A stretch of 64,000 nucleotides of DNA from an uncultured Gammaproteobacteria bacterium (lineage in GTDB: Bacteria > Patescibacteriota > Patescibacteriia > Magasanikbacterales > UBA922): positions 7,034-71,033 of the forward strand of contig CAYSPW010000003.1 in the NCBI GenBank assembly GCA_964433095.1, read 5' to 3'. The position numbers were made by a program, and so were the translations under genes. Below the pieces are notes generated by a model. The model did not search any database and was not told the DNA's origin. It saw nothing but the letters and a program-made list of their open reading frames with translations. Of the stretch, positions 1,494 to 32,086 are shown piece by piece. Numbering within the stretch: the stretch's first letter is position 1; the number at the start of each line of letters is the position of its first letter.

Positions 1494-4301
1494 ATGAGAG
1501 AATACAAACCTCGCGAGATTGAGAAAAAATGGCAGCACTATTGGGAAGAAAACCAAATTTTTAAAACTCCTACTGAAGCAGAAATTGACAACAAAATGTA
1601 CATACTGCCCCAACTGCCTTACCCATCCGGTTCCGGACTCCATGTCGGCCACGCCGAAGTATACACGGCCTGTGATATTTACGCTCGTTACCAGAGAATG
1701 ATCGGCAAGGATGTACTACAGGTAATCGGCTGGGATTCTTTCGGATTGCCGGCGGAAAACTACGCAATCAAAACAAATATACATCCGCGCGTTAGTACCG
1801 AGCAGGCGATTGATACTTTTAGAGAACAAATTAAGTTATTGGGTGTTTCGGTGGACTGGGACCGGGAAGTAAGCGCTCATCATCCTTCCTTCTATAAATG
1901 GACTCAATGGTTTTTTTTGTTGTTTTACAAGCGTGGGCTGGCTTACAGAAAAAAACAGTCGGTCAATTGGTGCGACGGCTGTAAAACCGTCTTGGCCAAT
2001 GAACAAGTGGTGGATGGACGCTGTGAACGTTGCGAAGCGGTCATCCGGCAAAGAGATATGGAGCAATGGTTTTTGAAAATTACCGCTTATGCCGATCGCT
2101 TGATTGATGATTTGGACAAAGTGGATTGGCCGGCAGAAACAATAAAAAGACAAAAAGATTGGATTGGGCGTTCGCCGGGTGCGTTGGTGAATTTTTACAT
2201 CAATGGAGATCCGGTGGAAGTCTTTAGCACCAGACCGGATACATTGTTCGGCGCCACTTATTTGATTTTGGCACCCGAACATGAATCGGTTCGCTTATTG
2301 AAGGATAAAATAGAAAATTGGAAACAGGTGTCAGAATATATAGAGCGGGCGCGATTAAAAAGCGATTTGGACCGCCAAACCGAAAAAGAAAAGACCGGAG
2401 TGGAATTGCGTGGCATTAAGGCTGATAATCCGGTCAATAACGAAAAAATACCGGTGTATATAGCGGATTATGTTTTATCCGGCTATGGAACCGGCGCCAT
2501 CATGGCCGTTCCCGCTCATGATGAAAGAGATTATGAATTTGCAAAAAAATACGATCTGCCCATAAAGCAGGTGGTGGCCGAGCAGGTTGGCGAAAAAAAA
2601 GAGCAAGGACAGTGTCGGCCCGGTTCTTATGCGGTAATGGAAAAAGATGAAAAGATTTTGGTAATCTATGATAAAAAAACAGATTTTTATCGGCTGCCGG
2701 GCGGCGGATTTGAAGAAGGTGATGATGCCGAGCAGGCTCTGAGAAGAGAGATAGCTGAAGAAACCGGCTATGTTAATTATCATGTGGGAGAGCATTTTAC
2801 CAAACTGGAGAGTTGCGGCTATTCTGATAATAACAAAGCTTACTTGCATAGATTGTTGCATGTTTATCATGTCAAATTGGAAAATGACCAAAGAGATCAA
2901 TCTCTATTGGAAGATGCACAGCGTTGGAGGCTAGAATGGATGACCTATGAACAGGTGGTAGAAGTCTTTGGTAAAGAAACAAGGGAGCTGGAGTTGATTG
3001 CTTTGGTATTGGATAAGATGACGCCATGCTATAGCGGTGAAGGAGTTTGCGTTGATTCCGGCTTTTTAGCCGGACTGCACACCGATGAAGCCAAAGAAAA
3101 AATGGTACGGTGGTTGGAAGAAAATAACTTTGGAAAAAGTCACGTTCAATACAAGCTGCGCGACTGGTCCGTTTCCAGACAGCGCTTTTGGGGAGCGCCC
3201 ATTCCCATGCTCTATGATCAAGAAGGCGAACTTCATCCGGTGCCGGAGGAAGATTTACCCGTGCTTTTACCAACGGATGTTGATTTCAAGCCTACGGGTG
3301 AATCGCCTTTAAACTGTTCGCAAGAATTTCAACAAGGGGTGGAAGAAAAGTACGGCCAAGGTTGGAGCCGGGAACCGGATACTTTGGATACTTTTATGTG
3401 TTCCAGCTGGTATTATTATCGCTATCTTGACCCACATAACGATAAATGTTTCGCCTCGCCCGAGAGCATAAAAACATGGATGCCGGTTGATTTTTATCTG
3501 GGCGGTTCGGAGCATGTTACGGGGCATTTACTCTATTCGCGATTTTTCACCAAAGTACTCTATGATTCCGGATATATTGATTTTGACGAGCCTTTTTTGA
3601 AACATCGCCATCAAGGATTGATTTTGGGAGAAGATAACAGAAAGATGAGCAAGCGCTGGGGCAACGTGATCAATCCGAGTGATGTCGTGAAAGAATTCGG
3701 AGCAGACACTACCAGAATGTACGAAATGTTCATGGGTCCTTTGGAAGACGATAAGCCTTGGGACATGAACGGTGTTAAAGGAGTGAGAAGATTTTTGGAT
3801 AAAGTTTGGAGATTGCAGTCAAAAGTGGCGAATCAATCAAGCGCTAATGATAAGGTATTACACAAAACCATCAAAAAAGTTACCACCGACATTGAGGATA
3901 TGCGTTTCAATACCGCCATTGCGTCCATGATGGAGCTGGTTAATTTCTGGCAGAAGAAGGAACAATTATCTAAGAATGATTTTTCTTTGTTTGTAAAAAT
4001 TCTTTCTCCTTTCGCGCCTCACATATGTGCGGAAATTTGGCAGATTTTGGGCCATGATGAGCAGCCGGCGTTTCAAAGTTGGCCAGCATATGACGCGGAA
4101 TTGATAAAAGAAGACACCATTACTTTGGTGGTACAGATAAACGGCAAAGTGAGGTCAAATCTGTCAGTACCGGCCGACATCGGGGAAGATGAAGCCAGGC
4201 GAGTGGCGCTTGCCGATGAAAAAACGCGCCAATGGCTTGCGGATAAAGAACCGAAAAAAATTATTTACGTAAAAGACAAATTAATCAATATCGTGACGTA
4301 A
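1494..4301 (+). CDS. leuS: Leucyl-tRNA synthetase with an inserted Nudix-like domain
   Basis: Class I HIGH-type motif HVGHAEVY, KMSKR (KMSKS); CP1 editing-domain blocks TRPDTLFGATY and GTGAIMAVPAHDERDYEFA; RDWSVSRQRFWGAPIPM. About 120 extra residues between the editing domain and the RDW block carry a Nudix box. Confidence 0.9.
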   Translation: MREYKPREIEKKWQHYWEENQIFKTPTEAEIDNKMYILPQLPYPSGSGLHVGHAEVYTACDIYARYQRMIGKDVLQVIGWDSFGLPAENYAIKTNIHPRVSTEQAIDTFREQIKLLGVSVDWDREVSAHHPSFYKWTQWFFLLFYKRGLAYRKKQSVNWCDGCKTVLANEQVVDGRCERCEAVIRQRDMEQWFLKITAYADRLIDDLDKVDWPAETIKRQKDWIGRSPGALVNFYINGDPVEVFSTRPDTLFGATYLILAPEHESVRLLKDKIENWKQVSEYIERARLKSDLDRQTEKEKTGVELRGIKADNPVNNEKIPVYIADYVLSGYGTGAIMAVPAHDERDYEFAKKYDLPIKQVVAEQVGEKKEQGQCRPGSYAVMEKDEKILVIYDKKTDFYRLPGGGFEEGDDAEQALRREIAEETGYVNYHVGEHFTKLESCGYSDNNKAYLHRLLHVYHVKLENDQRDQSLLEDAQRWRLEWMTYEQVVEVFGKETRELELIALVLDKMTPCYSGEGVCVDSGFLAGLHTDEAKEKMVRWLEENNFGKSHVQYKLRDWSVSRQRFWGAPIPMLYDQEGELHPVPEEDLPVLLPTDVDFKPTGESPLNCSQEFQQGVEEKYGQGWSREPDTLDTFMCSSWYYYRYLDPHNDKCFASPESIKTWMPVDFYLGGSEHVTGHLLYSRFFTKVLYDSGYIDFDEPFLKHRHQGLILGEDNRKMSKRWGNVINPSDVVKEFGADTTRMYEMFMGPLEDDKPWDMNGVKGVRRFLDKVWRLQSKVANQSSANDKVLHKTIKKVTTDIEDMRFNTAIASMMELVNFWQKKEQLSKNDFSLFVKILSPFAPHICAEIWQILGHDEQPAFQSWPAYDAELIKEDTITLVVQINGKVRSNLSVPADIGEDEARRVALADEKTRQWLADKEPKKIIYVKDKLINIVT

Positions 4302-5878: not shown

Positions 5879-6817
5879 ATGAAGAATATAGACAAGGTGA
5901 TGTTGTTGCTATTTGCGTTGTTGTTATGCGTGGTGGGAATGGTATTTTGGCTGAAAAAGGATGAAAGCGGATTAAGCCCGGACGCGAGCGGATTAATGAT
6001 AAATCCAGAAGAAGAAAACGTTCAATACATACGCGTTACTTTTCTGGATGTGGGTCAAGGTGATGCTACGTTTATAGAATTCACCAATGGCGAACAAATG
6101 CTGGTGGATTGCGCCATAGATGCCAGAATCATTGAGGCTTTGGGCAGGGTGATGCCGTATTACGACCATGATCTGGATTATCTGCTGATCACTCATCCGG
6201 ATAGCGATCATTACGGCGGTTGCGCCGAGGTGTTGGAGCGATTTGAAGTTAAAAATATTATCTATAGCGGCGTGCAAAAAAGCGATGATGGTTGGCAGGA
6301 TTTGTGGTCCAAAGTAGAAATGGAGCCGGCCGATTATTACCAGATCGATGCCGAAGATTTTTGGCGGATAAGCAGCTCAACAATTCATTTTTTGTATCCT
6401 GATCATTCTTTGGTGAAAAATCCGAATATTTTGAGCATTGAAAAAGAAGTAAGCGCCAATAATATGTCAGTGATATTTAAGCTCAGTTTTGGAGAAAATA
6501 ATCTGTTGATGATGGGCGACGCGGAGGAGGAGTTGGAGGAATATTTACTGGCCACTTACGCGGATCAGTTGGACGCGGAAATACTGAAAGTGGCACATCA
6601 TGGATCAGGCAGCTCTTCCATTGTTGATTTTTTAAATGTGGTTTCACCTGATTATGCTGTGATTTCTTGCGGATTTGATAATCGGTTCGGACATCCTTCA
6701 AGACGGGTACTCAAAAGGCTGGAAAGAGCCGGGTCGGAGATTTGGAGGACTGATCTAAAAGGTGATATAATAGCAACGATATACTTAAATAAGGTGATTG
6801 TTGAATACAAAAAATAA
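5879..6817 (+). CDS. ComEC-type metallo-beta-lactamase domain protein (separate gene)
   Basis: N-terminal TM helix, then MBL-fold motifs HPDSDHYGG, GDAEEE, VAHHGS, as in the ComEC C-terminal nuclease domain. Confidence 0.7.
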   Translation: MKNIDKVMLLLFALLLCVVGMVFWLKKDESGLSPDASGLMINPEEENVQYIRVTFLDVGQGDATFIEFTNGEQMLVDCAIDARIIEALGRVMPYYDHDLDYLLITHPDSDHYGGCAEVLERFEVKNIIYSGVQKSDDGWQDLWSKVEMEPADYYQIDAEDFWRISSSTIHFLYPDHSLVKNPNILSIEKEVSANNMSVIFKLSFGENNLLMMGDAEEELEEYLLATYADQLDAEILKVAHHGSGSSSIVDFLNVVSPDYAVISCGFDNRFGHPSRRVLKRLERAGSEIWRTDLKGDIIATIYLNKVIVEYKK

Positions 6818-7577
6818 AATTTGCTCCGTAATTTTAATATCGGTTTTTATTCCGCTATGTTTTGTGTCAGCCGTTGAAGATCCGCTTGATAGTGATAGCG
6901 ACGGCTTAAGCGATGAATTGGAAAAATATTATTATACCGATCCGTTCAATTCTGATACGGATAATGACGGTTATTTGGACGGAGAAGAGGTGGTTGGGGA
7001 TTACTCGCCGCATTTGGGGAATAAAAAAAGACTGCATGAAGGCGATTATGACGGCGATGGCTTGAACGATTGGCTGGAGCGCTGGTTTGGTTCTGATCTG
7101 GGCGTAACAGACAGTGATGGGGATGGGGTGGAGGATTTGGATGAGGTTCTATCCGGTTCCAGTCCGGCTAAATTTGGCACCAGTACCGAGTTTGAGCGTC
7201 ATGTTGTGGTAGATCGTAGTTGGCAGCGTTTGTATTATTATGTGGACGGAGTAAAGATAAAAAATTTTCCGGTTTCCACCGGAATTCCCTATCTGGAAAC
7301 TCCGGGGGGTGAATTCAGCGTGACCGGTAAAATTCCGGTAAAGCGTTATGTCGGGTCGGATTATGATTTGCCCAATGTGTGGTGGAATCTGGAATTTTTT
7401 CCCATGTACTATATCCACGCCGCTTATTGGCATAACAATTTTGGCATGAGAACAGAATCTCATGGCTGCGTAAACATGCGTTTCAAGGACGCGGAACTGC
7501 TTTATCGCCATATTGATGTCGGAGTGCCTATCACCGTTACCGGTACCACACCGAGCCGTTTTTATGTCGGCACTTAA
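6798..7577 (+). CDS. L,D-transpeptidase (YkuD domain) with N-terminal calcium-binding DxDxDG repeats
   Basis: Catalytic ESHGCVNM (HGC) motif of YkuD L,D-transpeptidases; four thrombospondin-type-3-like D-x-D-x-D-G repeats (DSDSDGLSD, DTDNDGYLD, DYDGDGLND, DSDGDGVED); signal peptide. Confidence 0.75.
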   Translation: MLNTKNKICSVILISVFIPLCFVSAVEDPLDSDSDGLSDELEKYYYTDPFNSDTDNDGYLDGEEVVGDYSPHLGNKKRLHEGDYDGDGLNDWLERWFGSDLGVTDSDGDGVEDLDEVLSGSSPAKFGTSTEFERHVVVDRSWQRLYYYVDGVKIKNFPVSTGIPYLETPGGEFSVTGKIPVKRYVGSDYDLPNVWWNLEFFPMYYIHAAYWHNNFGMRTESHGCVNMRFKDAELLYRHIDVGVPITVTGTTPSRFYVGT

Positions 7578-14195: not shown

Positions 14196-15077
14196 TCATC
14201 TTCCGGTAATCAAACAACATACCGGCCGATCGAATTTACAGCCTTTATCCAAGGCTTTTTTTAATCCGGCAATTGATAAAGCGGAGTTTGGTGAGATACG
14301 TATGCCGGTGGTTTCTTGGGTTGTTTTTCGCGCCTGTTTTATATCTTTATCACTCACAACCCAGCCGGATCCATTTGATTTTTTTATAATTTCCAAAACT
14401 TCATTTTTTCTGTGCGCTATTTTGTCAACTATTGCCCCGGCAATGGAAATTTCATCTTTTGCCGTAAAATCATTGTCAAATTCACAGGCTATCGGATGGC
14501 AGTACTCGGTCTGCACCGCGTGAATTTGCGGATTGTGTGTCAATTTTTCAAAAGCCATACCCAAAGCCTTGGCGGTAGTGCCGGAGGAGGTGGGGATAAA
14601 AACGGCCTCAAGTCCCTCTATTTTATCTAACTCTTGCGCCAGCGAGCTGTATCCGATGAGCGCTGATTCGTCCGTGGACTGGCGCAGGTATTTAGCCCGC
14701 TTGGATTTATCAAGTTGAAAAGCGGTCTGCTTGGGTTTTTCCACCTGTTCAATTGTTATTCTTTCATCTGTGGCCAGTCTGTGCAGCCGGCCATATTTGG
14801 CCGGATCTATTTTTTTTCCCGTATAGACGCTTAAATAAAGCTGTTCATCATTGTTTCTGTTAAAATCAGATACATATTGAATCGCCGTCAAAGCGGCATT
14901 GCCCGAAGAAGAGATGACAAAATTGTTCCAACCGTTTTTATGGTGGACTTCAATCATAGGGGGGATGGAGCGGCCTTTGTGCGATCCGTAGCGGTGCCGA
15001 TCTTCGCGCTTCAGGTAAATTGTATTCAGCCCCAGCTCAGCTGCCAGCTTGGGGTGGTTTAATTGCGGAGTTTGCAT
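14196..15077 (-). CDS. PLP-dependent enzyme, tryptophan-synthase-beta superfamily (fold type II)
   Basis: KREDRHRYGSHKGRS resembles the PLP-lysine motif (K.ED.NPTGSFKDR) of the PALP family; glycine-rich TSSGTTAKALG loop; specific function not assignable. Confidence 0.45.
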   Translation of the reverse strand: MQTPQLNHPKLAAELGLNTIYLKREDRHRYGSHKGRSIPPMIEVHHKNGWNNFVISSSGNAALTAIQYVSDFNRNNDEQLYLSVYTGKKIDPAKYGRLHRLATDERITIEQVEKPKQTAFQLDKSKRAKYLRQSTDESALIGYSSLAQELDKIEGLEAVFIPTSSGTTAKALGMAFEKLTHNPQIHAVQTEYCHPIACEFDNDFTAKDEISIAGAIVDKIAHRKNEVLEIIKKSNGSGWVVSDKDIKQARKTTQETTGIRISPNSALSIAGLKKALDKGCKFDRPVCCLITGR

Positions 15078-15145: not shown

Positions 15146-15310
15146 ATGAAATTAATTTGTCCAGAGTGTAAAAACCAAGTAGACTTGACCGATTATCCTG
15201 ATTTGAGAATAGAACATATTGTGGAATGTAATATGTGCGGTATTACTTTGCAGGTGACAAATATTGACAACGACACGGTTATCACTGAAATCGTGGACGA
15301 AGGAAAGTAG
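15146..15310 (+). CDS. LysW-like zinc-ribbon carrier-protein homolog (54 aa, not in ORF track)
   Basis: MKLICPECKNQVDL...IVECNMCGITLQV then acidic tail DNDTVITEIVDEGK. Same length and CPEC...C..CG..L.V zinc-ribbon layout as LysW/ArgW amino-group carrier proteins, but C-terminus ends in Lys, not Glu. Confidence 0.35.
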   Translation: MKLICPECKNQVDLTDYPDLRIEHIVECNMCGITLQVTNIDNDTVITEIVDEGK

Positions 15311-15331: not shown

Positions 15332-16729
15332 TTACAAAGCTTCTTTTTGTTTTTCAATCAATTGTTCAATCATGCCCCGAAAACCACGTGATCCAAGAAA
15401 GACCACCACATCGTTTTGATCGGTGTTTCGGTTTAGATAATCCACCAGCTCGGTGTCCGATTCAATGTATTTGGTATCGGTGTGGGTTCGCGAAATAACA
15501 CGGGCCAGTTCTTGTCCGTCAAACGCGGCCTGTTTGTCCGGGTCCTTTTTAATGATACTTAATCTGGGAATTAGTACTTGGTCGGCATCGGCAAAAGCAT
15601 TTTTGTATCCCGGGGCCGAGCTGGGCTGGCGATTGCCGGTGTTAGGCTCAAAGACCGCGAATATTTTTCCATTATAAATCCGCCGTAAATTTTGTAGAGT
15701 AAAGGCTGTTTTGGCCGGTGAATGGGCAATATCGTCATAGATGATGATTTTGCCGCTGTATCTCTTTTCCAGTCTTCTTTTGAGTCCGGGAAATTTTTTG
15801 ATGCTTTCAATAACCGATTGTGATGGAATGCCGACTTCGTTCGCCAAGGCAAAACAGCCGGTAATATTCTCGGCCATGAATTGGCCGATCATGGGAGAAT
15901 TGATATTAAATTCAGTCTGCTTGTGCTTAATTTTAAACCGAATGCCGTTTTCATTTTGTGTCATTTCCGAATACTGATATTGGGAATCCGCGTTTTTTCC
16001 GTATCTGATAATTTCAGGGCCGTCTTGCGTGAATCGTAGCGACTTTATGGTATCAGAACATACTATTATCCCGTTTTTCGGTATGGAATCAGTCAATTTT
16101 TCAAAGATTTGCCTGTATTTTTTTTCAGTTGGATAAATATCGGCGTGATCCCATCTTAACCCTGTCAAGATTAAATGAGTGGGTGAGTAATGACTGAATT
16201 TGGGCGACATATCCCAGCGCGCGCTTTTGTATTCGTCTCCTTCCAGCACCGACCAGTCGCCGGATCCGATGTGGGAGGATAAGAAATTTTTATCCGCGCA
16301 CAAGCCACCGAACATGTAGCTGGGAGCGAATCCGACTTGTTCCAAGATGAACGCCAGCAAAGCGGATGTACTGGTTTTGCCGTAAGTGCCGGCGCAGACA
16401 ATTGAATTGGACTTAACAAAAAATTGTTTGATTAGCTGCGGATAGGAAACAAATTTCAGATTTTTTTCCTGCACGTATCGCCATTCCGGATTGGTTGATC
16501 CGGCCACGTTTCCCACCACCACCAAATCAGGATCGCCATCGGCGTTCATCTTGTCCACATGCCAACCCGGATAAAAGTAAATATCATGTTTTATCAGATG
16601 GGTGGATACGGGAGGAAAAAAGCCTTTGTCAGATCCGGTTACTTTATGGCCATTTTCTTTCAAGGCGATGGCCAAGGCGCTCATGGCTACGCCGCAAATG
16701 CCGATGAAGTGGATGTGTTGATTATTCAT
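15332..16729 (-). CDS. Mur ligase family, Mpl-like (UDP-MurNAc:tripeptide ligase) or MurC
   Basis: N-terminal HFIGICGVAMSALAIAL; P-loop GTYGKTSTS; EGDEYKSARWDMSPKFSHYSPTHLILTGLRWDHADIY closely parallels Mpl EADEYDCAFFDKRSKFVHY...NLEFDHADIF. Confidence 0.7.
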   Translation of the reverse strand: MNNQHIHFIGICGVAMSALAIALKENGHKVTGSDKGFFPPVSTHLIKHDIYFYPGWHVDKMNADGDPDLVVVGNVAGSTNPEWRYVQEKNLKFVSYPQLIKQFFVKSNSIVCAGTYGKTSTSALLAFILEQVGFAPSYMFGGLCADKNFLSSHIGSGDWSVLEGDEYKSARWDMSPKFSHYSPTHLILTGLRWDHADIYPTEKKYRQIFEKLTDSIPKNGIIVCSDTIKSLRFTQDGPEIIRYGKNADSQYQYSEMTQNENGIRFKIKHKQTEFNINSPMIGQFMAENITGCFALANEVGIPSQSVIESIKKFPGLKRRLEKRYSGKIIIYDDIAHSPAKTAFTLQNLRRIYNGKIFAVFEPNTGNRQPSSAPGYKNAFADADQVLIPRLSIIKKDPDKQAAFDGQELARVISRTHTDTKYIESDTELVDYLNRNTDQNDVVVFLGSRGFRGMIEQLIEKQKEAL

Positions 16730-17340: not shown

Positions 17341-17991
17341 TTATTCTGTCAGTATGTCTTTCAAATCACCTGTATTTTCGCGCCATTTTTCACCATCAAA
17401 CCATTCCAGGCCTTTGAATTGCAATTTATATTTATCTCCCGGTCGTTGCGCCGAACCGAGATAAAAATATTTTTTATGTTTATCCATGGCATGTATTATC
17501 GCCTTCAACATCATTCCCATGCCCAAGTTCTTTATTTCCCCACTAAGATCCGTTCGGTAAAAAGGATAACAATAGTGAATTATTTTATCGGTTTCAACCG
17601 AAATGCAATAACCAACTATTTTATCATCAAGCCGGTATTCAAGCAGCATGTTAAAATTGTGATCTCGGGTGAGAATTTCTCTTGCCTTGTTGGCGCTGAA
17701 TGTTCCTTTGCCGAATTTGGATTGGTAAAAATCTTTGGCCATTTTCGCTATTTTCCAAGAGTAATCGGTTAAAGGTACGGATTTGGCGATAAGAGATAAT
17801 TGCGCGGTTTTTTTTAAAACCCTTCTGTTTTCACTGCTTGGCACAAATTCGGATAAATCAATTCTCAAGGCTCTGGTTCGATTCATCTCTCCTTTGGCCA
17901 ATCTGGTAAAAACATAACCTTTGGCGTACAGCCTATTAACATTTTGATCGGAAAAGTCTATTATATTTTTTTTATCCCAGCTCAAATACAT
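17341..17991 (-). CDS. Arginyl/leucyl-tRNA--protein transferase (ATE1/Bpt)-family protein
   Basis: N-terminal LYAKGYVFTR...RIDLSEFVPSSENRRVLKK resembles ATE_N (R.D...F.PS.SQRRV.KK); C-terminal FYLGSAQRPGDKYKLQFKGLEWFDGEKW resembles ATE_C (YLGYYI...YK..F.P.E..W); canonical ATE_N cysteines absent. Confidence 0.4.
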   Translation of the reverse strand: MYLSWDKKNIIDFSDQNVNRLYAKGYVFTRLAKGEMNRTRALRIDLSEFVPSSENRRVLKKTAQLSLIAKSVPLTDYSWKIAKMAKDFYQSKFGKGTFSANKAREILTRDHNFNMLLEYRLDDKIVGYCISVETDKIIHYCYPFYRTDLSGEIKNLGMGMMLKAIIHAMDKHKKYFYLGSAQRPGDKYKLQFKGLEWFDGEKWRENTGDLKDILTE

Positions 17992-17992
17992 A

Positions 17993-19123
17993 TCAAAATA
18001 AAGCTATCCAAATACCGAGCAGTACAAACGCTGCATGAATGATCCAAAACCTCATTACGGTTTTTTCTTCGCTCCAGCCGCGTATCTCAAAATGATGGTG
18101 AATGGGGGCCATTTTAAAAATTCTTTTTCTTATGGTGTAGCGACCGACAATCTGAATGATGACGGATAGCAGCTCAATGTAGAAGATAAACCCGAAAAAG
18201 GGTAGCAGGAGCATTTTGTTGAGCACGATGGTATTGATGGCGAGCAAAGCTCCCAAACCCAAAGAACCGACATCTCCCATTTGGAAACGGGCCGGTTTGA
18301 TGTTGAAATAGGTGTAGGTAATGAGAGCGCCGAAAGTGGTGGAATTTAGTATGGCAATGGCATAGAATCCCTCTACCCAACTCAGTATGGTGAGGGCGGT
18401 AAAAGTAATCAGTAAAGATCCGCCGGCCAGACCATCCATGCCGTCGGCCACGTTGACCGCGTTCGCTGTAAACATGACGAACAAGATAATGAGCGGAATG
18501 ATAATCCAGCCGATACTGACAAAGCCGTCAAAAGGAATGTAAATATCACGCCAATGTTCACCAAGTTTGTAATAGACCCACCAAGCGGTAATGGCGCCGG
18601 CCGCGAACTGTAAAAGTAGTTTTTCATGAACATGTATTCCTTTGCCCGGATGCGATCCAAGCCATAGTGATCCGCGTTTGAATATGCTCCAAGGCAAGGT
18701 GAGAGCCAGCCATATGCGTTGCTTCCGGTCTTTGTGCACTTTGATTAAGCGTAGTACTTGCTTTAATTTTCTGGATCTTCTTTTATGACCGTAAATGTTT
18801 AAAACATCGTCAACTCCTCCCAAAAGCGCGGCCAAAAGCATTACGCCGATCGGCACCCAAGTGAACTGTCTTTCCCAATTAAAAAGCAGCGTAATCAAGG
18901 CTACTGTGACAATCACCAGCAGGCCGCCCATTACCGGCACCCCTGATTTGCTTTTTCTCGCGCCCATGGCCAAAGTGGCGTCATACTCGGGATGTCTGGT
19001 CAGTTTGTATTTGTACAGTACCCTGGTTAAAAAAGGCGCCCACAAAAAACTAACCACGCAAGAAACAAGACCAAAGGTAATGGCTATTCTCAGGGGTTCA
19101 ATTATTTGCAACGGTATATGCAT
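17993..19123 (-). CDS. mraY: Phospho-N-acetylmuramoyl-pentapeptide transferase MraY
   Basis: GGVDDVLNIYG, NAVNVADGMDGLAGG and the MraY-specific PIHHHFEIRGWSEEKTVMRFWI block; about 10 TM helices; an unusual basic loop insertion (HKRRSRKLKQVLRLIKVHKDRKQR). Confidence 0.85.
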   Translation of the reverse strand: MHIPLQIIEPLRIAITFGLVSCVVSFLWAPFLTRVLYKYKLTRHPEYDATLAMGARKSKSGVPVMGGLLVIVTVALITLLFNWERQFTWVPIGVMLLAALLGGVDDVLNIYGHKRRSRKLKQVLRLIKVHKDRKQRIWLALTLPWSIFKRGSLWLGSHPGKGIHVHEKLLLQFAAGAITAWWVYYKLGEHWRDIYIPFDGFVSIGWIIIPLIILFVMFTANAVNVADGMDGLAGGSLLITFTALTILSWVEGFYAIAILNSTTFGALITYTYFNIKPARFQMGDVGSLGLGALLAINTIVLNKMLLLPFFGFIFYIELLSVIIQIVGRYTIRKRIFKMAPIHHHFEIRGWSEEKTVMRFWIIHAAFVLLGIWIALF

Positions 19124-19235
19124 AAGTTTGGTATAATATTAGCAGGTAAGCTTGAAAAAATCAATGTATTGTGTTTAAATGGGCTCAGTCTTAAATTAAT
19201 ATCGACGAACACACAGACAAGGAGGTTTTTTTAAA

Positions 19236-19487
19236 ATGAAAAAATGTAAATGCGGCAAAAAGCTCCTTGAAATGGAAAGAATCTGCCGGGATTGTTGGCA
19301 AAGGGCCAATAAAAAAAGATGGGCTTCTTCGCCGCCCGATCAAGGAGGTGACAATTCTGAACACCCAAACGGCCAAAGAACGGCCAAGGTCAAGGAGGTT
19401 AAAAATGAGCAACTGCCGTGGCCGGAACAACTCGTTGGTTCCGAAGATGACCAAGCGAGATTGCCGAGTATGTCGCAAAAGGAATGA
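19236..19487 (+). CDS. Small zinc-ribbon protein (83 aa) with acidic disordered tail
   Basis: Canonical SD AAGGAGG 10 nt upstream of ATG; MKKCKCGKKLLEMERICRDCW (CxC...CxxC). The tail overlaps the next small ORF, so the true C-terminus is uncertain. Confidence 0.4.
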   Translation: MKKCKCGKKLLEMERICRDCWQRANKKRWASSPPDQGGDNSEHPNGQRTAKVKEVKNEQLPWPEQLVGSEDDQARLPSMSQKE

Positions 19488-19575
19488 ATGTCCTTTTGGC
19501 GGGGACCTGCAAAAGTGCAATGCCGATTTGCAGTCCCGCATAAAGGCAATACACAAAAATAAACGGGAAAATTGA
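19405..19575 (+). CDS. Small basic Cys-rich protein (56 aa)
   Basis: SD AAGGAGG 6 nt upstream of ATG; MSNCRGRNN...RDCRVCRKRNECPFGGDLQKC (five Cys). Confidence 0.35.
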   Translation: MSNCRGRNNSLVPKMTKRDCRVCRKRNECPFGGDLQKCNADLQSRIKAIHKNKREN

Positions 19576-19700
19576 AGTTACTTGGAAAGCGGACATGTTT
19601 AACTCATGATCCGCTTTATTTATCTGTTGACAAATTAATTAATTTATGCTTCAATTGACTTGTGCTTGGGGATAAATCGTTTAAAAAAAAGGAGGAAAAA

Positions 19701-19844
19701 ATGCAAAAAATATGGAACGCGTGGGCTTATGTCTACGACATGGCCATGTTTTTAATGGGCGCCAGCGGTCGTTGCCCGATCTGCGGAGCGGTCTTTCGTT
19801 TGTCATTGGGGCCGGGCTGCCGGCCTTGCCACAAGAAAGCTTGA
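19701..19844 (+). CDS. Small zinc-ribbon protein (47 aa) with hydrophobic N-terminus
   Basis: SD AAGGAGG 5 nt upstream of ATG; MQKIWNAWAYVYDMAMFLMGASGRCPICGAVFRLSLGPGCRPCHKKA (CPIC...CRPC). Confidence 0.4.
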   Translation: MQKIWNAWAYVYDMAMFLMGASGRCPICGAVFRLSLGPGCRPCHKKA

Positions 19845-19854
19845 ATTTTTAGTA

Positions 19855-19890
19855 AGCCGTCTGCCGACACGGGTGAGGCGGCTTTTTTAA
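19855..19890 (+). terminator. Putative rho-independent terminator after the small-ORF cluster
   Basis: Imperfect hairpin AGCCGTCTGCC...GGTGAGGCGGCT followed by TTTTTT. Confidence 0.35.
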
Positions 19891-20660
19891 TTTAATCGTC
19901 GGATCTGAGCGATATCCGAGTTTTTAAAGCGAAGAAAGGTTTCATTTTTTTGTCCGGAGACATCTTGCTCAATCCAAGTTTGGTCAGTCAATAAGCTTCG
20001 CGGATTACTCACTTTAATTTTACCTCTCCTTACTCCGTGCTTGTATTGTCCGTCGGCCGACCATTGAAATGAGTGCACATAGTGAATGGTTTGGGGAATA
20101 CCGTCATGCGATTCAACTTTTTCCACAATGGCTATATGATCTCTGTCTTTTTTCGGACCAAAACCCAGACTGATTAGCATATCGGCCGGCTGAGTCAGGT
20201 TTAATTTCACGACATGAGAGTTTTTTTCATGTGCCAGCGTCCTTACACGGGTATTTTCAATCGGCCTGAGACGTGCGATCAAACGGCGGATCGGATTTTT
20301 AACATTTGGGAAATAAATAATAAAAGCCAGTCGTTTGTTTTTTTTCTGTTTCGCCTGTGCGTCAAGCAATTGATAAGCGAATCCGGAACAGTCAATGCCC
20401 AAATTGTGGTCAACCAAAAATTTTTTTAATTGATCATTGCTCATTTTTTTAACATCCTTTCTCTCTCTGATTGATAGAATATTTGCTTCTTCCACGATTT
20501 CTTCCGGAGAACCTTTGCCTGTAACAACTTTCAATCCGCTTTTAACCGCGCTACGGCGATTATTAAAATACGGACAATTTATTTGTTTTTCGGTAAAAGG
20601 AAGATTAAGAAACGAATCCACTACCCGCTGAGCTTTTTTGGTTAAAGTTAAATCCGTCAT
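19887..20660 (-). CDS. NlpC/P60 (C40)-like papain-fold cysteine peptidase/amidase
   Basis: GIDCSGFAYQLL matches the C40 catalytic-Cys motif (DCSGF); downstream DHIAIV (His) and VESHDG (polar third residue); 4-nt overlap with the upstream ATP-grasp gene suggests co-translation. Confidence 0.5.
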   Translation of the reverse strand: MTDLTLTKKAQRVVDSFLNLPFTEKQINCPYFNNRRSAVKSGLKVVTGKGSPEEIVEEANILSIRERKDVKKMSNDQLKKFLVDHNLGIDCSGFAYQLLDAQAKQKKNKRLAFIIYFPNVKNPIRRLIARLRPIENTRVRTLAHEKNSHVVKLNLTQPADMLISLGFGPKKDRDHIAIVEKVESHDGIPQTIHYVHSFQWSADGQYKHGVRRGKIKVSNPRSLLTDQTWIEQDVSGQKNETFLRFKNSDIAQIRRLN

Positions 20661-21868
20661 ATTAATATTTTTTCACCTAAAGAATTTAATTGATTATGGC
20701 CTGACATTAAAGAGCGCGTGCTTTGAATGCGAATTTTATCAGTTCCGGGCTTGTTATTCTCGTATTCTATTACCGTAAAACCGGTCTTTTCCAAAATTTT
20801 CCGTTCCGCTATTGAAGCAGAAGATCGTATAGGTATTCTTTTAATTATCTGAGCGCCGTCTTTAATTTGAATTATGCGCTCGCCTGAAAGATCAATATCC
20901 AAAAGCGCGCCCAGATGAGCTTGAAAAGTGGTAAGACCGACCGAGCTTTCTTTGGCGTGTTTTTGTAAAATTGATTCAAAGCTTGCCGAAGCCGGTTGTC
21001 TGGCGTTTATTTCCACCAAGTATATTTTTTTGCTCATTTGGTCCATCACGAAGTCCGCGCCATATAGCCCTTTCCAACCTTGTGACGCCAATTTTTCGCC
21101 AATGCGGGAGGTAATTTCATTTATCTGTTTTTTTTGTAGAGAGTTGAGCAGCTTGTACGGCAAAGACCAGTCATTTCCCACCGTGGCAAATGGACTGTCG
21201 CTGAATGTTTCCAGTCCGGTGATCTGATAAATAATATTACCGAGCAAAACATCGCTTTGGGCGCAAACGGCGTTGATGGTAAAGGAGGGCCCGACAATGT
21301 ATTGTGATTTTCTTGCCGGCCGGTTAGGGAATTTTTGCTTGATTTGCTCTAACTGGCTAGCTGATTCAATTAATTTTGTGCCTTGTCCGGTATGGGAAGT
21401 ATTAAATTGCAATATGAAGGAATTTTGCTTCCATTCCAGCCGGGAGCAGTTTTTAATTTCGGTTTTTGGTAAATACCGGGATAAATCGGCCAGCCATTCC
21501 ACTTGCGATATTTTTTTTTCAACCGTTTGACTCAGTTTAGCCGGGGGATTGAGTAGTTTATAATTGTTCTTTCGGCAAATTTTTTCAATGCGGCCGTTAC
21601 TTTTAAAAACCAAAATACCGGCGCCGGATTTTTCATTGATAAATTTTTGTACTTCCTGTTCTTGGAGCAGTTCGGCCGTATCCAAAATCAATTCTTTTTT
21701 TATGAGTAAAATATTTGTTCTCTGTCCGGCGACAGACTTGGCAAATGGGGTATAATTTGAGATAATATTATAGTGGAAAAAATCCAAATCAAAGCCGATT
21801 GCCCTTTCTATGTCGCGGCTTACATATATCACCGGATGGCACTTTAATTTTTCAAAAATTTGCATCAT
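20657..21868 (-). CDS. ATP-grasp family ligase (specific substrate unknown)
   Basis: Glycine-rich loop FNTSHTGQGTKLI, YIVGPSF, and the Mg/ATP-binding block KIYLVEINARQPAS typical of ATP-grasp enzymes; extra C-terminal domain of about 90 aa. Confidence 0.6.
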   Translation of the reverse strand: MMQIFEKLKCHPVIYVSRDIERAIGFDLDFFHYNIISNYTPFAKSVAGQRTNILLIKKELILDTAELLQEQEVQKFINEKSGAGILVFKSNGRIEKICRKNNYKLLNPPAKLSQTVEKKISQVEWLADLSRYLPKTEIKNCSRLEWKQNSFILQFNTSHTGQGTKLIESASQLEQIKQKFPNRPARKSQYIVGPSFTINAVCAQSDVLLGNIIYQITGLETFSDSPFATVGNDWSLPYKLLNSLQKKQINEITSRIGEKLASQGWKGLYGADFVMDQMSKKIYLVEINARQPASASFESILQKHAKESSVGLTTFQAHLGALLDIDLSGERIIQIKDGAQIIKRIPIRSSASIAERKILEKTGFTVIEYENNKPGTDKIRIQSTRSLMSGHNQLNSLGEKILI

Positions 21869-21906: not shown

Positions 21907-22866
21907 ATGGATATTATTTACAAAAAATTGAAAGAATTCGGCAAGGTTAAAACAAACCAGGATTTAAGCAAGTATTGTACCATGGGAGTGGGAGGCCTTG
22001 CCCGCTATTTTATTATATTGGAAGATGTGGATTTAATTCCCGGATTGGTTGGTTTTTTGCGACGAAACGATTTGGAATACACGGTTTTGGGAGCGGGCAG
22101 CAACGTGATTTTTTCCGGCAACCAATATGATGGCGCGGTCATCAAGATCGCAGATCGCACCGTTAAGATCAAAGACAACGTGGTTGAGTGCGCGGCCGGC
22201 GCCAATATGGCCGAAGCGGCTCGGATTTCCATGCGGGCCGGTCTGACCGGCTTTGAATGGGCGATCGGAATCCCCGGCACCATGGGCGGTGCTGTTTACG
22301 GCAACGCCGGGGCCATGGATGCTCGGACGCAAGATAATGTATTGAAAGTTCTTGTGTTCATGGATGGAGAGCTGATCGAGATGATGAATCAGGATTGTCA
22401 ATTCGGTTACCGCGATAGTATATTCAAGCATCAAGGAGGCGTGATATTACGTGTTTGGTTGTTGCTGGAACATAGAAAAGATAATTCCAAAACGCGGCAG
22501 ATTTTGCAATATATGCAAAAAAGGAATGATTCCCAGCCCACCGGCATGGCTTCCAGTGGTTGTATTTTTAAAAATGTGGAGAGCGGCCGATTAGATTTGG
22601 ATGAAAAGATGCTGAAAGATTTATCCGTACCGCAAGAATTTATTGACGATGGAATCATACCGGCCGGCCGGCTGATTGACGCGTGCGGCTTGAAGGGTAA
22701 AAAGATCGGTGGCGCGCAAATCAGCGACAAGCATGCCAATTTCATAATCAATCATGGTTCGGCCAATGCTGAAGATGTTTTGGCATTGATTGATTTGGTA
22801 AAAAAAGAAGTGTATGATAAATATGGGATAGAGTTAAAAGAAGAAGTGCAAATAATTAAAAATTAA
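21907..22866 (+). CDS. murB: UDP-N-acetylenolpyruvoylglucosamine reductase MurB
   Basis: FAD-binding LGAGSNVIF, GIPGTMGGAVYGNAGA, C-terminal SSGCIFKN and GGAQIS...HANFIIN blocks. Confidence 0.85.
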   Translation: MDIIYKKLKEFGKVKTNQDLSKYCTMGVGGLARYFIILEDVDLIPGLVGFLRRNDLEYTVLGAGSNVIFSGNQYDGAVIKIADRTVKIKDNVVECAAGANMAEAARISMRAGLTGFEWAIGIPGTMGGAVYGNAGAMDARTQDNVLKVLVFMDGELIEMMNQDCQFGYRDSIFKHQGGVILRVWLLLEHRKDNSKTRQILQYMQKRNDSQPTGMASSGCIFKNVESGRLDLDEKMLKDLSVPQEFIDDGIIPAGRLIDACGLKGKKIGGAQISDKHANFIINHGSANAEDVLALIDLVKKEVYDKYGIELKEEVQIIKN

Positions 22867-30055: not shown

Positions 30056-32086
30056 ATGGCCAATAAAACTCAACAATCCAATACCCGTTCCAAAGTGCGC
30101 TGGGGCATAGTGGGAGTGCTGGCGCTTTTTTTGATTGCCGGTTTTTTTGACGCTCCAGCTTTGGCAAATAAATTGATAGATTCTGTAAATCAAACCGTAT
30201 CTCTGGGCCTGCCTCGCGTTCCGGAAAAGGATTTTAATCTGGGGCTTGATTTGCAGGGCGGAGCACATCTGATTTACCAGGCCGATATATCAGGGATTGA
30301 GGCGAACGAGCGAGGCGTAGCCGTGGAAGGAGTGCGAGATGTGATTGAAAGGCGAGTAAACGCGATCGGGGTTTCCGAGCCTAATGTTCAGACTACCAAA
30401 GTAAGTGGAGAATACCGCATTATCGTGGAGCTGCCCGGAATTAGTGATACTAATAATGCCATAAACATGATCGGCGAAACTCCAATATTGGAATTCAAAG
30501 AAGAAAATAATCAGCCGCAAAGAGAATTGACCGAGGTGGAAGAGCAAGAAATAGTGCAATACAACATGATGGCCACGCAAAGACTGGGTGAAGCCGTAGA
30601 AAAAATAAAATCCGGAGCGGATTTCGGATCCGTAGTCAGAGAATATTCCGAAGATGAACTGAGTAAAAACAACGGGGGGTATTTGGGATATATTGATAAA
30701 TTTTCACCTTATCCGGCTCTTTTCAGCTGGGCCGAAAATGCGCAAGAGGGGGAGATGGGGGAATTTATTCAGAGCGTGGACGGCATTAATATAGTTAAAA
30801 GAGGTCAAGAGAGAGACGGACAATTACAAGTGGAGTCCAGTCATATTTTGATCTGCTATATAGGAGCTCAGTATTGTGAAGAAGAAAATTTATCCAAAGA
30901 AGAAGCGTTTTTAAAAGCACAATCGATTTTTAATCTAGTGAACGCGGATAATTTCTCCGAATTGGCCGAAGAAAATTCCACCGACGCGGGGTCGGCGGCA
31001 AACGGAGGTTATCTGGGATTTGTAAATAAAGGAATGCTGGTTCCGGAAGTGGACGCGCCTTTGTTTAACGCCGAAGTGGGACAAATAATCGGTCCGATTG
31101 AATCACCGTTTGGCTATCATGTCATATACAAGCAAAGCGAATCCATTGGCAAGGAATATGAAATTTGGAGGTTATTGATCAAAACAAAATCAGCTGAAGA
31201 CATTTTACCCCCGGACGATCCGTGGAAATCAACCGGATTGTCAGGCAAGCAATTAAGCAAAGCCGAAGTGGTTACCGATCCGCAAACCGGAGCAGTGCAG
31301 GTATCGTTAATTTTTGATGGCGAAGGCAAGGATTTGTTCAGGGAAATAACCGAACGTAATTTGAATAAGCCGGTGGCAATCTTTTTGGACGGCGTGCCGA
31401 TCAGTATTCCGACCGTGAACAGTATAATTCCTGACGGCCGGGCCGTAATTCAGGGCAATTTCAACCTCAAGGAAGCGCAGTTGCTGGCACAAAGACTTAA
31501 CGCCGGCGCTCTGCCGGTCCCGGTTGAATTGATCTCTCAACAAAGTGTTGGAGCCAGTTTGGGGGCCGAATCTTTGCAGAAAAGCTTGAAAGCCGGCATC
31601 GCCGGGTTGATCGTGATAATGATTTTTATGCTGATTTATTACCGCTTGCCCGGATTGGTTTCGGTGATAGCTTTGTGTTTATACATTGCTTTGGCCTTGG
31701 CTATTTTCAAATTAATAGGAGTGACTCTCACTTTGGCCGGCATCGCCGGGTTAATACTTTCCATTGGCATGGCCGTGGACGCCAACGTGCTCATATTTGA
31801 GAGATTAAAAGAGGAGTTAAAACAAGGCAAAAGCTTGAGAACCGCGGTTGAGGAAGGCTTTTTGCGAGCTTGGACTTCAATTCGCGACGGTAATATTTCC
31901 ACATTGATTACTTGTGTTTTGTTGATTTGGTTCGGCTCCAGTTTTGTGCAGGGCTTCGCGGTCACTTTGGCGATCGGTATTTTGACTAGCATGTTTTCCG
32001 CCATTACGGTCACCAGAGTGATCTTGCGTTTCGTGGTACCGTGGTTTGGAAGCGGCAAGAGCCGATTGTTTTTGGGATCAAAATAA
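30056..32086 (+). CDS. secD: Protein-export membrane protein SecD with two inserted parvulin (PpiC-type PPIase) domains
   Basis: SecD N-terminal TM and P1 blocks (LGLDLQGGAHLIY, RVNAIGVSEPNV, IIVELPG) and C-terminal TM bundle (LGAESLQKS...GIAG). Between them are two PpiC-like repeats: the first degenerate, the second canonical (SHILI...ANGGYLGFVNKGMLVPEVDAPLF...GPIESPFGYHVIYK). Confidence 0.85.
   Translation: MANKTQQSNTRSKVRWGIVGVLALFLIAGFFDAPALANKLIDSVNQTVSLGLPRVPEKDFNLGLDLQGGAHLIYQADISGIEANERGVAVEGVRDVIERRVNAIGVSEPNVQTTKVSGEYRIIVELPGISDTNNAINMIGETPILEFKEENNQPQRELTEVEEQEIVQYNMMATQRLGEAVEKIKSGADFGSVVREYSEDELSKNNGGYLGYIDKFSPYPALFSWAENAQEGEMGEFIQSVDGINIVKRGQERDGQLQVESSHILICYIGAQYCEEENLSKEEAFLKAQSIFNLVNADNFSELAEENSTDAGSAANGGYLGFVNKGMLVPEVDAPLFNAEVGQIIGPIESPFGYHVIYKQSESIGKEYEIWRLLIKTKSAEDILPPDDPWKSTGLSGKQLSKAEVVTDPQTGAVQVSLIFDGEGKDLFREITERNLNKPVAIFLDGVPISIPTVNSIIPDGRAVIQGNFNLKEAQLLAQRLNAGALPVPVELISQQSVGASLGAESLQKSLKAGIAGLIVIMIFMLIYYRLPGLVSVIALCLYIALALAIFKLIGVTLTLAGIAGLILSIGMAVDANVLIFERLKEELKQGKSLRTAVEEGFLRAWTSIRDGNISTLITCVLLIWFGSSFVQGFAVTLAIGILTSMFSAITVTRVILRFVVPWFGSGKSRLFLGSK

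Follow-up and report, generated by a model that had tools for sequence, protein, structure and literature searches.

In a few described systems an ATP-dependent ligase comes together with a hydrolase. The glutathionylspermidine (Gsp) synthetase/amidase GspSA and trypanothione synthetase-amidase combine an amide ligase with a CHAP-type Cys-His amidase, sometimes in one polypeptide, and in the Ddl/VanA and VanX systems a ligase of the ATP-grasp type and a peptidase share one operon. We know of no stem-peptide branch ligase and no L-amino-acid ligase (LAL) that is paired or fused with a papain-fold amidase. D-amino-acid branches of the peptidoglycan stem peptide are added by ATP-grasp ligases, one of which, Aslfm, acts on UDP-MurNAc-pentapeptide, and L-amino-acid and Gly branches by Fem/GNAT-fold ligases (PMC2922099). 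Here we describe a gene for a predicted ATP-grasp amide ligase and a gene for a divergent NlpC/P60-CHAP-type cysteine amidohydrolase (hereafter the ligase and the hydrolase) that overlap in a 64,000-nucleotide stretch of a Patescibacteria genome (Magasanikbacterales; GenBank assembly GCA_964433095.1, contig CAYSPW010000003.1, positions 7,034 to 71,033), which is referred to as the window. The two proteins are almost certainly functionally coupled, which is the firmest conclusion of this work, and sequence comparisons point to a lineage-specific ligase/amidase bienzyme that belongs to no characterised enzyme family. No published description of such a ligase-hydrolase pair was found in the literature searched.

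Results

The ligase and hydrolase genes are adjacent or fused across Patescibacteria

A sequence-only reading of the window had placed the two open reading frames (ORFs) in an operon with a 4-bp overlap, and their coordinates and minus-strand orientation proved exact (Table 1). The minus-strand junction reads ...ATATGACG..., with the TGA stop of the ligase (ATA TGA) and the ATG start of the hydrolase (ATG ACG) both contained in ATGA, and AGGTGA sits about 12 nt 5' of the hydrolase start; such an overlap is predicted to make their translation coupled. That both ORFs are genuine is shown by the hundreds of full-length homologues that exist for each protein at 45-53% identity. The ligase has 692 database relatives (best non-self E 1e-126, about 50% identity over the full length) and the hydrolase 161 (best E 1e-80, about 47% identity).

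With one genome scanned for each GTDB species, ligase relatives turned up in 348; the best 80 of these genomes were fetched, and by title all are Patescibacteria MAGs or MAGs with an evidently generic 'uncultured Gammaproteobacteria' label. Among 82 non-redundant loci, the hydrolase gene lies directly downstream of the ligase gene in 68, with junctions mostly between -35 and +40 bp, and the two are fused in a further 10. Adjacency or fusion thus accounts for 78 of the 82; of the four remaining loci, three have a contig that stops within 900 bp of the ligase, leaving a single unexplained absence of the hydrolase gene. It is these fusions and the near-universal adjacency that argue for functional coupling, and the pairing of a ligase with a papain-fold amidase that had been read from the window alone is thereby borne out. 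Both proteins are confined to Patescibacteria, mostly Magasanikbacteria, and the hydrolase family is small and closed, as a profile search of 1.84 billion representative proteins returned 653 at E<=1e-3 and 221 at E<=1e-30.

Fusions make up about one fifth of the best 150 hydrolase matches and always carry the ligase at the N-terminus; the window hydrolase aligns with the hydrolase portion of two of them at E 2e-81 (P0024, 659 amino acids (aa)) and 2e-89 (P0068, 671 aa). Two kinds of junction occur, one following a full-length ligase and the other a ligase that lacks about 55 C-terminal residues, which suggests from the sequences that fusion arose more than once. Eighteen of the 82 ligases bear a C-terminal tail of about 140 aa and are still followed by the hydrolase gene. 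Where checked, this tail is a NUDIX domain: nine fit the Nudix-box pattern, and many relatives of this kind are annotated with Pfam PF00293. No triple ligase-NUDIX-hydrolase fusion was present among the long representatives. In some relatives the cluster also includes separate genes for NUDIX domains. An anti-phage defence system was ruled out, as PADLOC defence models matched neither the ligase nor the hydrolase, nor the neighbouring LysW-like and arginyltransferase (ATE)-like proteins, and no relative of the pair was found on viral contigs.

Table 1. Features of the window, in window coordinates
Feature	Coordinates	Strand	Remarks
ATP-grasp amide ligase gene	20657..21868	-	403 aa; three ATP-grasp domains and a small C-terminal domain
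Gln154 codon, in 'ILQFN'	21407..21409	-	invariant in ligase family
ExNxR motif codons (E286-I-N288-A-R290)	20999..21013	-	predicted Mg/ATP and acyl-phosphate motif; invariant, n=53
ATGA stop/start overlap of ligase and hydrolase genes	20657..20660	-	4 bp
Divergent NlpC/P60-CHAP-type cysteine amidohydrolase gene	19887..20660	-	257 aa
Predicted catalytic Cys91 codon (GIDCSGF)	20388..20390	-	invariant, n=48; first residue of helix 91-107
Predicted catalytic His175 codon (DHIAIV)	20136..20138	-	invariant; in strand 173-185
His196 codon, likely third triad residue	20073..20075	-	conserved in >=90%; adjacent strand 188-198
murB	21907..22866	+	divergent; Pfam MurB_C 1.6e-32; upstream of pair in most of 82 loci
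Spacer between hydrolase gene and mraY	19124..19886		763 bp; two small Cys-rich ORFs on (+)
Small Cys-rich ORF 2	19662..19844	+	60 aa; weak FmdE zinc-finger match; no homologue found
Small Cys-rich ORF 1	19236..19487	+	83 aa; CxC...CxxC; homologue at same position in one other contig (L001/L013)
mraY	17993..19123	-	downstream, same strand as pair; Pfam Glycos_transf_4 3e-25; variable spacer
ATE_C/arginyltransferase-like (Fem-fold) protein	17341..17991	-	216 aa; abuts mraY; Pfam ATE_C 7.5e-7
MurC/Mpl-like Mur ligase	15332..16729	-	sole Mur ligase of cluster; NCBIfam murC 248, mpl 243 bits
LysW-like zinc-ribbon protein	15146..15310	+	54 aa; Pfam Zn_ribbon_LysW 33.1 bits vs cut-off 27
PALP-fold enzyme	14196..15077	-	threonine-synthase or dehydratase-like; conserved; far under any family cut-off
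YkuD-type L,D-transpeptidase	6798..7577	+	with bacterial TSP3 repeat
Leucyl-tRNA synthetase	1494..4301	+	inserted NUDIX domain, aa 381-492
SecD	30056..32086	+	PpiC-type peptidyl-prolyl isomerase (rotamase) matches inside periplasmic region; same in L005

The ligase has an ATP-grasp fold and fits no known family

Pfam recognises the ligase by the generic ATP-grasp_3 model alone (33 bits vs a cut-off of 23.2, E 7.7e-8), and an ATP-grasp Pfam match is present in 49 of the 53 family members analysed. Among NCBIfam models, the window protein gives a distant match to the PRK06524 'biotin carboxylase' model (67.4 bits vs a cut-off of 684) and a still weaker one to an archaeal pseudomurein ATP-grasp model. 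The same pattern holds across the family, with PRK06524 matched by all 53 members (best E 2.2e-23, far under the cut-off), the pseudomurein model weakly by 50, LdmS weakly by 11 and PylC by a handful, all far under their cut-offs. Nothing significant emerged when the ligase and its family profile were searched against all PDB sequences.

The AlphaFold2 model built on the family alignment (pLDDT 94) has the three-domain ATP-grasp fold and returned 559 PDB matches at E<=1e-3 with Foldseek. The top matches were PurK, 3vot (the L-amino-acid ligase BL00235, ranked second), 8ynd (an ATP-grasp peptide ligase from Streptomyces), PurT, PurD and biotin carboxylase (BC), all with E of about 1e-16 and TM-scores of 0.6-0.68. 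Across the 53 sequences the invariant residues comprise K119, D272 and the E286-x-N288-x-R290 motif, together with the loop Q154-F-N-x-x-H159-x-G161 and the motif G231-N232-D233-W. The LVEINARQPAS segment singled out in the sequence-only reading is thus conserved at E286, N288 and R290, and the acidic and Asn residues expected to bind Mg are present as D272, E286 and N288, in a stretch that aligns to the matching Mg-site stretch of Ddl and ITPK1. Relative to the known BC and DdlB motifs, Gln154 presumably stands in place of the usual phosphate-binding Lys before the flexible loop, and the E-x-N-x-R motif looks to be of the BC/PurK type and not the Ddl type. Gln154, G-N-[D/E], ExNxR and His318 are all common to the ligase and the PRK06524-like proteins of Rhizobium, Roseobacter and Chondrinema.

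The earlier statement that the protein does not look like Ddl, RimK, GshB or PurK was upheld by family models, all of which it falls far below. For Ddl, TIGR01205 matches 6 of 53 members (best 7.5e-4), the PDB DdlB match has E 0.45, and E. coli DdlB as a query retrieves one ligase family member only (E 1.5e-4). In the RimK/LysX/GshB group, rimK_rel_E_lig matches 1 of 53 (0.0096), and neither a RimK nor a GSH-S_ATP Pfam match was found. The models purT (9 of 53) and purK (3 of 53) match at E>=1e-5, far under cut-offs, so the likeness to the PurK/PurT/BC families is structural, and carbamoyl-phosphate synthetase (CPSase) membership was ruled out by the family-model scores. Gsp synthetase was rejected with no GSP_synth match in Pfam or NCBIfam and no GspS among the top 50 structural matches. 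Even for PRK06524 (NF005096) the score marks a distant relative and not a member. The ligase is therefore best described as a branch, specific to the Candidate Phyla Radiation (CPR), of a PRK06524-like/BC-PurK-LAL structural group, and its sequence and model give it the appearance of a competent amide or carboxylate-amine ligase.

The hydrolase is a very divergent member of the NlpC/P60-CHAP superfamily

The window hydrolase reaches no Pfam or NCBIfam threshold, with CHAP at E 0.056 and no NLPC_P60 match at E<=0.1. Weak Pfam matches are spread over the 48 family members, of which 33 match NLPC_P60 (best 2.5e-5), nine Amidase_6 and six CHAP (at or under E 0.01). A PDB sequence search found no relative of the hydrolase, and the family profile matches just the 17-residue G-x-D-C-S-G-F motif of LytE, at E 0.22.

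G88, D90, C91, S92 and H175 are invariant in the alignment of 48 sequences, which agrees with the GIDCSGF and DHIAIV motifs picked out earlier, while at least 90% of the sequences keep H196, H208, Y194 and Y206, H196 probably supplying the polar third residue that had been anticipated. A family-specific N-terminal module of about 85 aa precedes this region, with P30, Y31, N33, N34, G48, K49 and G50 invariant. In the AlphaFold2 model (pLDDT 94.5), the Cys lies at a helix N-terminus and is followed by His175 near the start of a strand and by His196 near the end of the neighbouring antiparallel strand, as in the unpermuted papain/NlpC-P60 geometry. The best PDB matches by Foldseek are all papain-like, headed by the E. 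coli Gsp amidase domain (3a30; E 5e-3, probability 0.93, TM 0.28/0.38, 13% identity) and followed by IdeS/Mac-1 and the LysK CHAP domain (CHAPK), with TM-scores that are low throughout (0.2-0.38). The model thus places the hydrolase in the NlpC/P60-CHAP superfamily as a very divergent member of no defined family. The earlier assignment to a C40/NlpC-P60-like peptidase holds for the Cys-His(-His) arrangement and at superfamily level but not for membership of a family, given that no Pfam C40 or CHAP threshold is reached and the TM-score to 3a30 is 0.28-0.38. No hydrophobic segment was detected in the hydrolase or the ligase; because of this, and because in some relatives it is fused to an ATP-dependent enzyme, the hydrolase is predicted to be cytoplasmic.

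Cell-wall genes are recurring neighbours of the pair

In the window, murB diverges from the pair with 38 bp between it and the ligase start, and the mraY start lies 763 bp past the hydrolase stop, both much as described before. Across loci a conserved order runs from SecA, HPF and murB to the divergent ligase and hydrolase, a variable spacer, mraY, the ATE/Fem-like gene and the MurC/Mpl-like ligase, and continues with the LysW-like zinc ribbon in the opposite orientation and then the PALP enzyme, a methyltransferase and Elp3. The arrangement of the pair between divergent murB and downstream mraY is that of Magasanikbacteria. In a Taylorbacteria genome a TP_methylase-family methyltransferase gene takes the place of the upstream murB and mraY still follows the pair, and a Paceibacter genome has the pair diverging from mraZ-mraW-divIC, with which the division/cell-wall cluster opens. 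Cell-wall genes are thus recurring, not universal, neighbours, and the proposed link to peptidoglycan genes survives in several gene arrangements.

A methyltransferase subclade (L025, L034, L037, L043, L048, L056, L061, L066, L072, L081, L083 and L084) has a three-gene ligase-hydrolase-methyltransferase operon without mraY downstream. The methyltransferase (e.g. L037:3751-4263) gives weak PrmA/DOT1-like matches and mostly begins a few bases after the hydrolase.

The sequence-only reading had also noted that two small Cys-rich ORFs converge on the pair. A tie between these putative genes and the pair found no support, as only one of the two has a homologue, in one other contig. Elsewhere the hydrolase-mraY spacer holds unrelated inserted genes, such as a 443-aa ORF in L092. 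The window, this spacer included, gave no Rfam match that would point to an RNA element or attenuator, and promoter and terminator scans gave counts near shuffled expectation.

PRK06524-type relatives lie in a different gene context

The best-matching named sequence relative of the ligase, the uncharacterised family PRK06524 (NF005096), is known from Rhizobium, Roseobacter, Chondrinema and others. Its identity with the ligase is 19-24%, its members are about 100 aa longer, and the ligase scores about 10% of the family cut-off. We compared three PRK06524-type ATP-grasp genes, on plasmids of Rhizobium (L089:7974-9413), Chondrinema (L090:6704-8254) and Roseobacter (L091:6695-8224). On one side each is flanked by a large pyridoxal-phosphate (PLP)-dependent (ornithine) decarboxylase gene; the other side holds a C45 peptidase gene in two of the three cases. 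Genes nearby also encode GabT, a C-N hydrolase, and a peptide transporter or an APC permease. As in the pair, a Cys-nucleophile hydrolase gene follows the ATP-grasp gene, but it is of the C45 family, and the surroundings of PLP decarboxylase, C-N hydrolase and peptide ABC transporter contrast with the mur genes around the pair. Because PRK06524 lies between a PLP decarboxylase and a C45 peptidase and not among carboxylase genes, its 'biotin carboxylase' annotation is probably wrong, and the pair described here provides a first functional handle on this family.

Neighbouring proteins of the window

The ATE-like gene adjoins mraY in nearly all loci. Its product is related to arginyl/leucyl-tRNA-protein transferases (NCBIfam arginyltransferase 1e-14, under the cut-off), has no PDB relative by sequence and is a possible candidate for an aminoacyl-tRNA-dependent stem-peptide branch transferase. 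The Mur ligase falls under the cut-offs of both murC and mpl; its PDB matches include 3hn7 (4e-45) and MurC 1gqq (3e-37). The best two are the Mpl structures 3hn7 and 3eag, the latter bearing the Mpl name in the PDB and the former labelled MurC there, which we take to be the Mpl of Psychrobacter. This ligase could add either L-Ala or a preformed peptide.

The LysW-like gene is always found between the MurC/Mpl-like ligase and the PALP gene. Its product ends in ...E[IV]xDEGK, with the last five residues invariant in all 34 unique orthologues, and its family comprises 101 clusters whose few named or context-checked members are all from Patescibacteria. Its usual partners in the lysine pathway, LysX and LysK, did not turn up in the window or the fetched flanks. 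The PALP enzyme, always encoded beside the LysW-like gene, is a candidate racemase, beta-replacement enzyme or dehydratase. In one locus an extra 303-aa RimK/YheCD/TTL-like ATP-grasp gene (L001:7810-8721) stands between the ATE-like gene and the Mur ligase, near the LysW-like gene; at this position the window has just a 612-bp gap with two small ORFs. Farther off, the YkuD-type L,D-transpeptidase suggests 3-3 wall cross-linking in the window organism.

Discussion

Our tentative reading, which we consider the likeliest though short of probable, is that the pair is a cytoplasmic ligase with its cognate amidase acting on a peptidoglycan-precursor peptide. The ligase would activate a carboxylate with ATP as an acyl phosphate and join it to an amine, giving an amide or peptide bond, and the papain-fold Cys-His-His enzyme would hydrolyse the amide of the same product or a close relative, whether for reversal, proofreading or trimming. 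The substrate might be a soluble precursor peptide, namely a UDP-MurNAc-peptide, a free stem peptide or a dipeptide, to which the ligase would attach an amino acid or amine as a branch or substituent before transfer to the lipid carrier by MraY. The ATP-grasp D-aspartate ligase of enterococci offers a precedent for the ligase step, and the amidase may restrain the modification as the amidase domain does in glutathionylspermidine synthetase/amidase. We infer this chemistry, the substrate and the antagonistic relationship of the two enzymes. A stem-peptide tailoring module had already been suggested in the sequence-only reading, and the gene context fits it; the choice of a stem peptide as substrate is drawn from that context.

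Cell-wall genes stand beside the pair in three arrangements (murB/mraY, mraY without murB, and mraZ/mraW), and a Fem/ATE-fold transferase and a MurC/Mpl-like ligase come after mraY, such that both enzyme types, ATP-grasp and Fem/ATE-like, flank mraY in the window cluster. The weak match of 50 of 53 ligases to the archaeal pseudomurein model points the same way. Several observations weigh against a role in precursor tailoring. The clearly unrelated SecA, HPF, Elp3 and methyltransferase genes are equally syntenic with the pair, so gene order alone is weak functional evidence and the conservation of the neighbourhood may be largely inherited gene order and not functional selection; for this question the rearranged loci tell more than the conserved order. 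In 12-13 loci a gene for an S-adenosylmethionine (SAM) methyltransferase of about 170 aa, and not mraY, directly follows the hydrolase, with murB still upstream. The fused gene of locus L014 has no cell-wall gene within 9 kb, the hydrolase-mraY spacer is variable and often has inserted genes, the NUDIX tail on 18 of 82 ligases also counts on this side, and the proteobacterial clusters of PRK06524-like genes suggest small-molecule or peptide metabolism and not the cell wall.

The last of these points leads to a Gsp-like synthetase/amidase of some polyamine-, thiol- or amino-acid-derived conjugate, with no tie to the cell wall, which we regard as unlikely. Gsp amidase is the hydrolase's best structural match, the closest named relatives of the ligase share its unusual residues and lie beside ornithine-decarboxylase-like enzymes, a C-N hydrolase, GabT and a C45 Cys-hydrolase, a small methyltransferase or NUDIX domain has been added in some operons, and L014 has no cell-wall genes nearby; yet the ligase is not similar to Gsp synthetase, the domain order is reversed, the identity with PRK06524-like proteins is low, cell-wall adjacency recurs in three arrangements, and CPR genomes encode hardly any small-molecule metabolism. 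Synthetase-glutaminase couples, too, typically show such 1:1 pairing and repeated fusions. By analogy with MurT/GatD or the CPSase subunits CarA/CarB, the hydrolase would then be a glutaminase or amide-donor hydrolase that passes ammonia to the ATP-grasp enzyme for amidation of D-isoglutamate (D-iGlu) or diaminopimelate (DAP) in the precursor. The cell-wall gene context and the structural grouping of the ligase with CPSase and BC fit such a scheme, which we nonetheless hold to be distinctly improbable, for the argument is one by analogy alone, the hydrolase has no features of class-I glutamine amidotransferases (GATases), its large conserved N-terminal module rather suggests binding of a bulky substrate, and we know of no papain-fold glutaminase partnered with an ATP-grasp enzyme. 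The ligase might instead replace Ddl non-orthologously, making the C-terminal dipeptide (or a variant) for MurF, with the hydrolase as a VanX-like dipeptidase of the wrong dipeptide. Genes for Ddl commonly lie beside murB, murC and mraY, yet no canonical Ddl was found with an E. coli DdlB query in the window or the roughly 1.3 Mb of flanks from 88 loci, a search that covered flanks only, so that ddl may sit elsewhere in these genomes. Structural neighbours of the ligase include L-amino-acid ligases that make free dipeptides (3vot, 8ynd), and the Ddl model TIGR01205 is weakly matched by a few family members. Against this, the ExNxR motif and the overall profile look to be of the BC/PurK and not the Ddl type, the PDB Ddl match is insignificant at E 0.45, the family is spread over just a part of the CPR (348 species), and we know of no ligase-dipeptidase fusion in Van systems, all of which makes Ddl replacement quite unlikely.

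Two further schemes draw on other products of the cluster. ATP-grasp ligation and hydrolysis at the C-terminus of a carrier protein is the logic of the LysW pathway, and the pair could run a ligation/cleavage cycle on the ...DEGK tail of the LysW-like protein, either as LysX/LysK-like carrier loading and release or in the manner of tubulin-tyrosine ligase and vasohibin. The LysW-like protein is above its Pfam threshold, keeps its last five residues invariant, is limited to the same CPR lineages and the same cluster, and is strongly acidic (isoelectric point (pI) 4.2) where both enzymes are strongly basic (pI 9.4 and 10.0), but most CPR proteins are basic anyway, its gene is 5-8 kb off on the other strand and always accompanies the genes for the Mur ligase and the PALP enzyme and not the pair, the ligase does not resemble RimK/LysX (one weak match among 53 members), and no fusion of the LysW-like protein with either enzyme occurs, so that we consider such a cycle very unlikely. 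That it would supply or protect an amino acid or peptide for the Mur ligase, making precursor synthesis partly carrier-protein-dependent, is more improbable still. Salvage of murein peptides is a scheme in which we likewise place very little confidence. Here the hydrolase would trim imported host stem peptides as YkfC does, the ATP-grasp enzyme would rebuild or extend them, and the Mpl-like ligase would attach them to UDP-MurNAc produced by MurB. CPR bacteria are auxotrophic episymbionts, cytoplasmic NlpC/P60 enzymes that act on free murein peptides exist (YkfC), and the fit of the Mur ligase to Mpl structures is no worse than to MurC, with nearly equal NCBIfam scores for mpl and murC; this ligase may nevertheless be either MurC or Mpl, the hydrolase has neither YkfC-like SH3b domains nor significant similarity to YkfC, and no transporter is encoded in the cluster.

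If the pair does modify the stem peptide of peptidoglycan precursors, as we tentatively favour, it would bring to light a peptidoglycan chemotype not seen before, along with a new pair of enzymes that add branches or substituents; to our knowledge, many of the classical stem-peptide substituents still have no known enzyme. Were the LysW-like tail or the replacement of Ddl to prove correct, the textbook precursor pathway would change for a whole lineage. The CPR is a large and almost uncultured part of bacterial diversity whose cell-wall chemistry has hardly been examined, and at least 348 species genomes carry the module, which sits among the few genes for peptidoglycan precursors that these reduced genomes keep. 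The substrates are commercially or enzymatically accessible, which makes the main hypotheses directly testable in vitro.

Comparison with known systems sets the pair apart from each of them in a different way. Like NlpC/P60 (C40) and CHAP (C51) enzymes such as LytE, YkfC and Spr/MepS, the hydrolase has the G-x-D-C-S-G-F motif, the unpermuted Cys-His-His order and a papain-like alpha+beta core, but it is predicted to be cytoplasmic, has no signal peptide, stays under every Pfam threshold, has a unique 85-aa N-terminal module and a long hairpin between its two His residues, and is obligately paired at the gene level with an ATP-grasp enzyme. The ligase belongs to the same fold group as Aslfm, BL00235/3vot, BacD and LdmS, which make peptide bonds with a carboxylate that is either free or bound to a precursor, yet it has no significant sequence match to the L-amino-acid ligases BL00235/3vot, BacD and LdmS. 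With Ddl/VanA and VanX the pair shares an ATP-grasp enzyme in a mur/mraY neighbourhood and an operon of ligase and peptidase, whereas Ddl family models are not reached, the Mg-site of the ligase has the BC-type Arg, and VanX is a metallo-dipeptidase in contrast to the Cys hydrolase of the pair. The LysW carrier system relies on a C-terminal Glu of the ...EDWGE type, a RimK-type LysX and an M20-type LysK, while the LysW-like protein of the window ends in DEGK and the pair consists of a non-RimK ligase and a papain-fold hydrolase. By analogy, the pair may be functionally most like Gsp/trypanothione synthetase-amidase, which also joins an ATP-dependent amide ligase to a CHAP-type Cys-His amidase. 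This likeness, proposed in the sequence-only reading, is tentative for the amidase, where the Gsp amidase domain is the hydrolase's best if weak structural match, and fails for the ligase, which bears no relation to Gsp synthetase and falls in the BC/PurK/LAL group instead. The two systems differ, moreover, in domain order, with the ligase N-terminal in the pair, and in gene context, which is that of the cell wall for the pair and not of thiol or polyamine metabolism.

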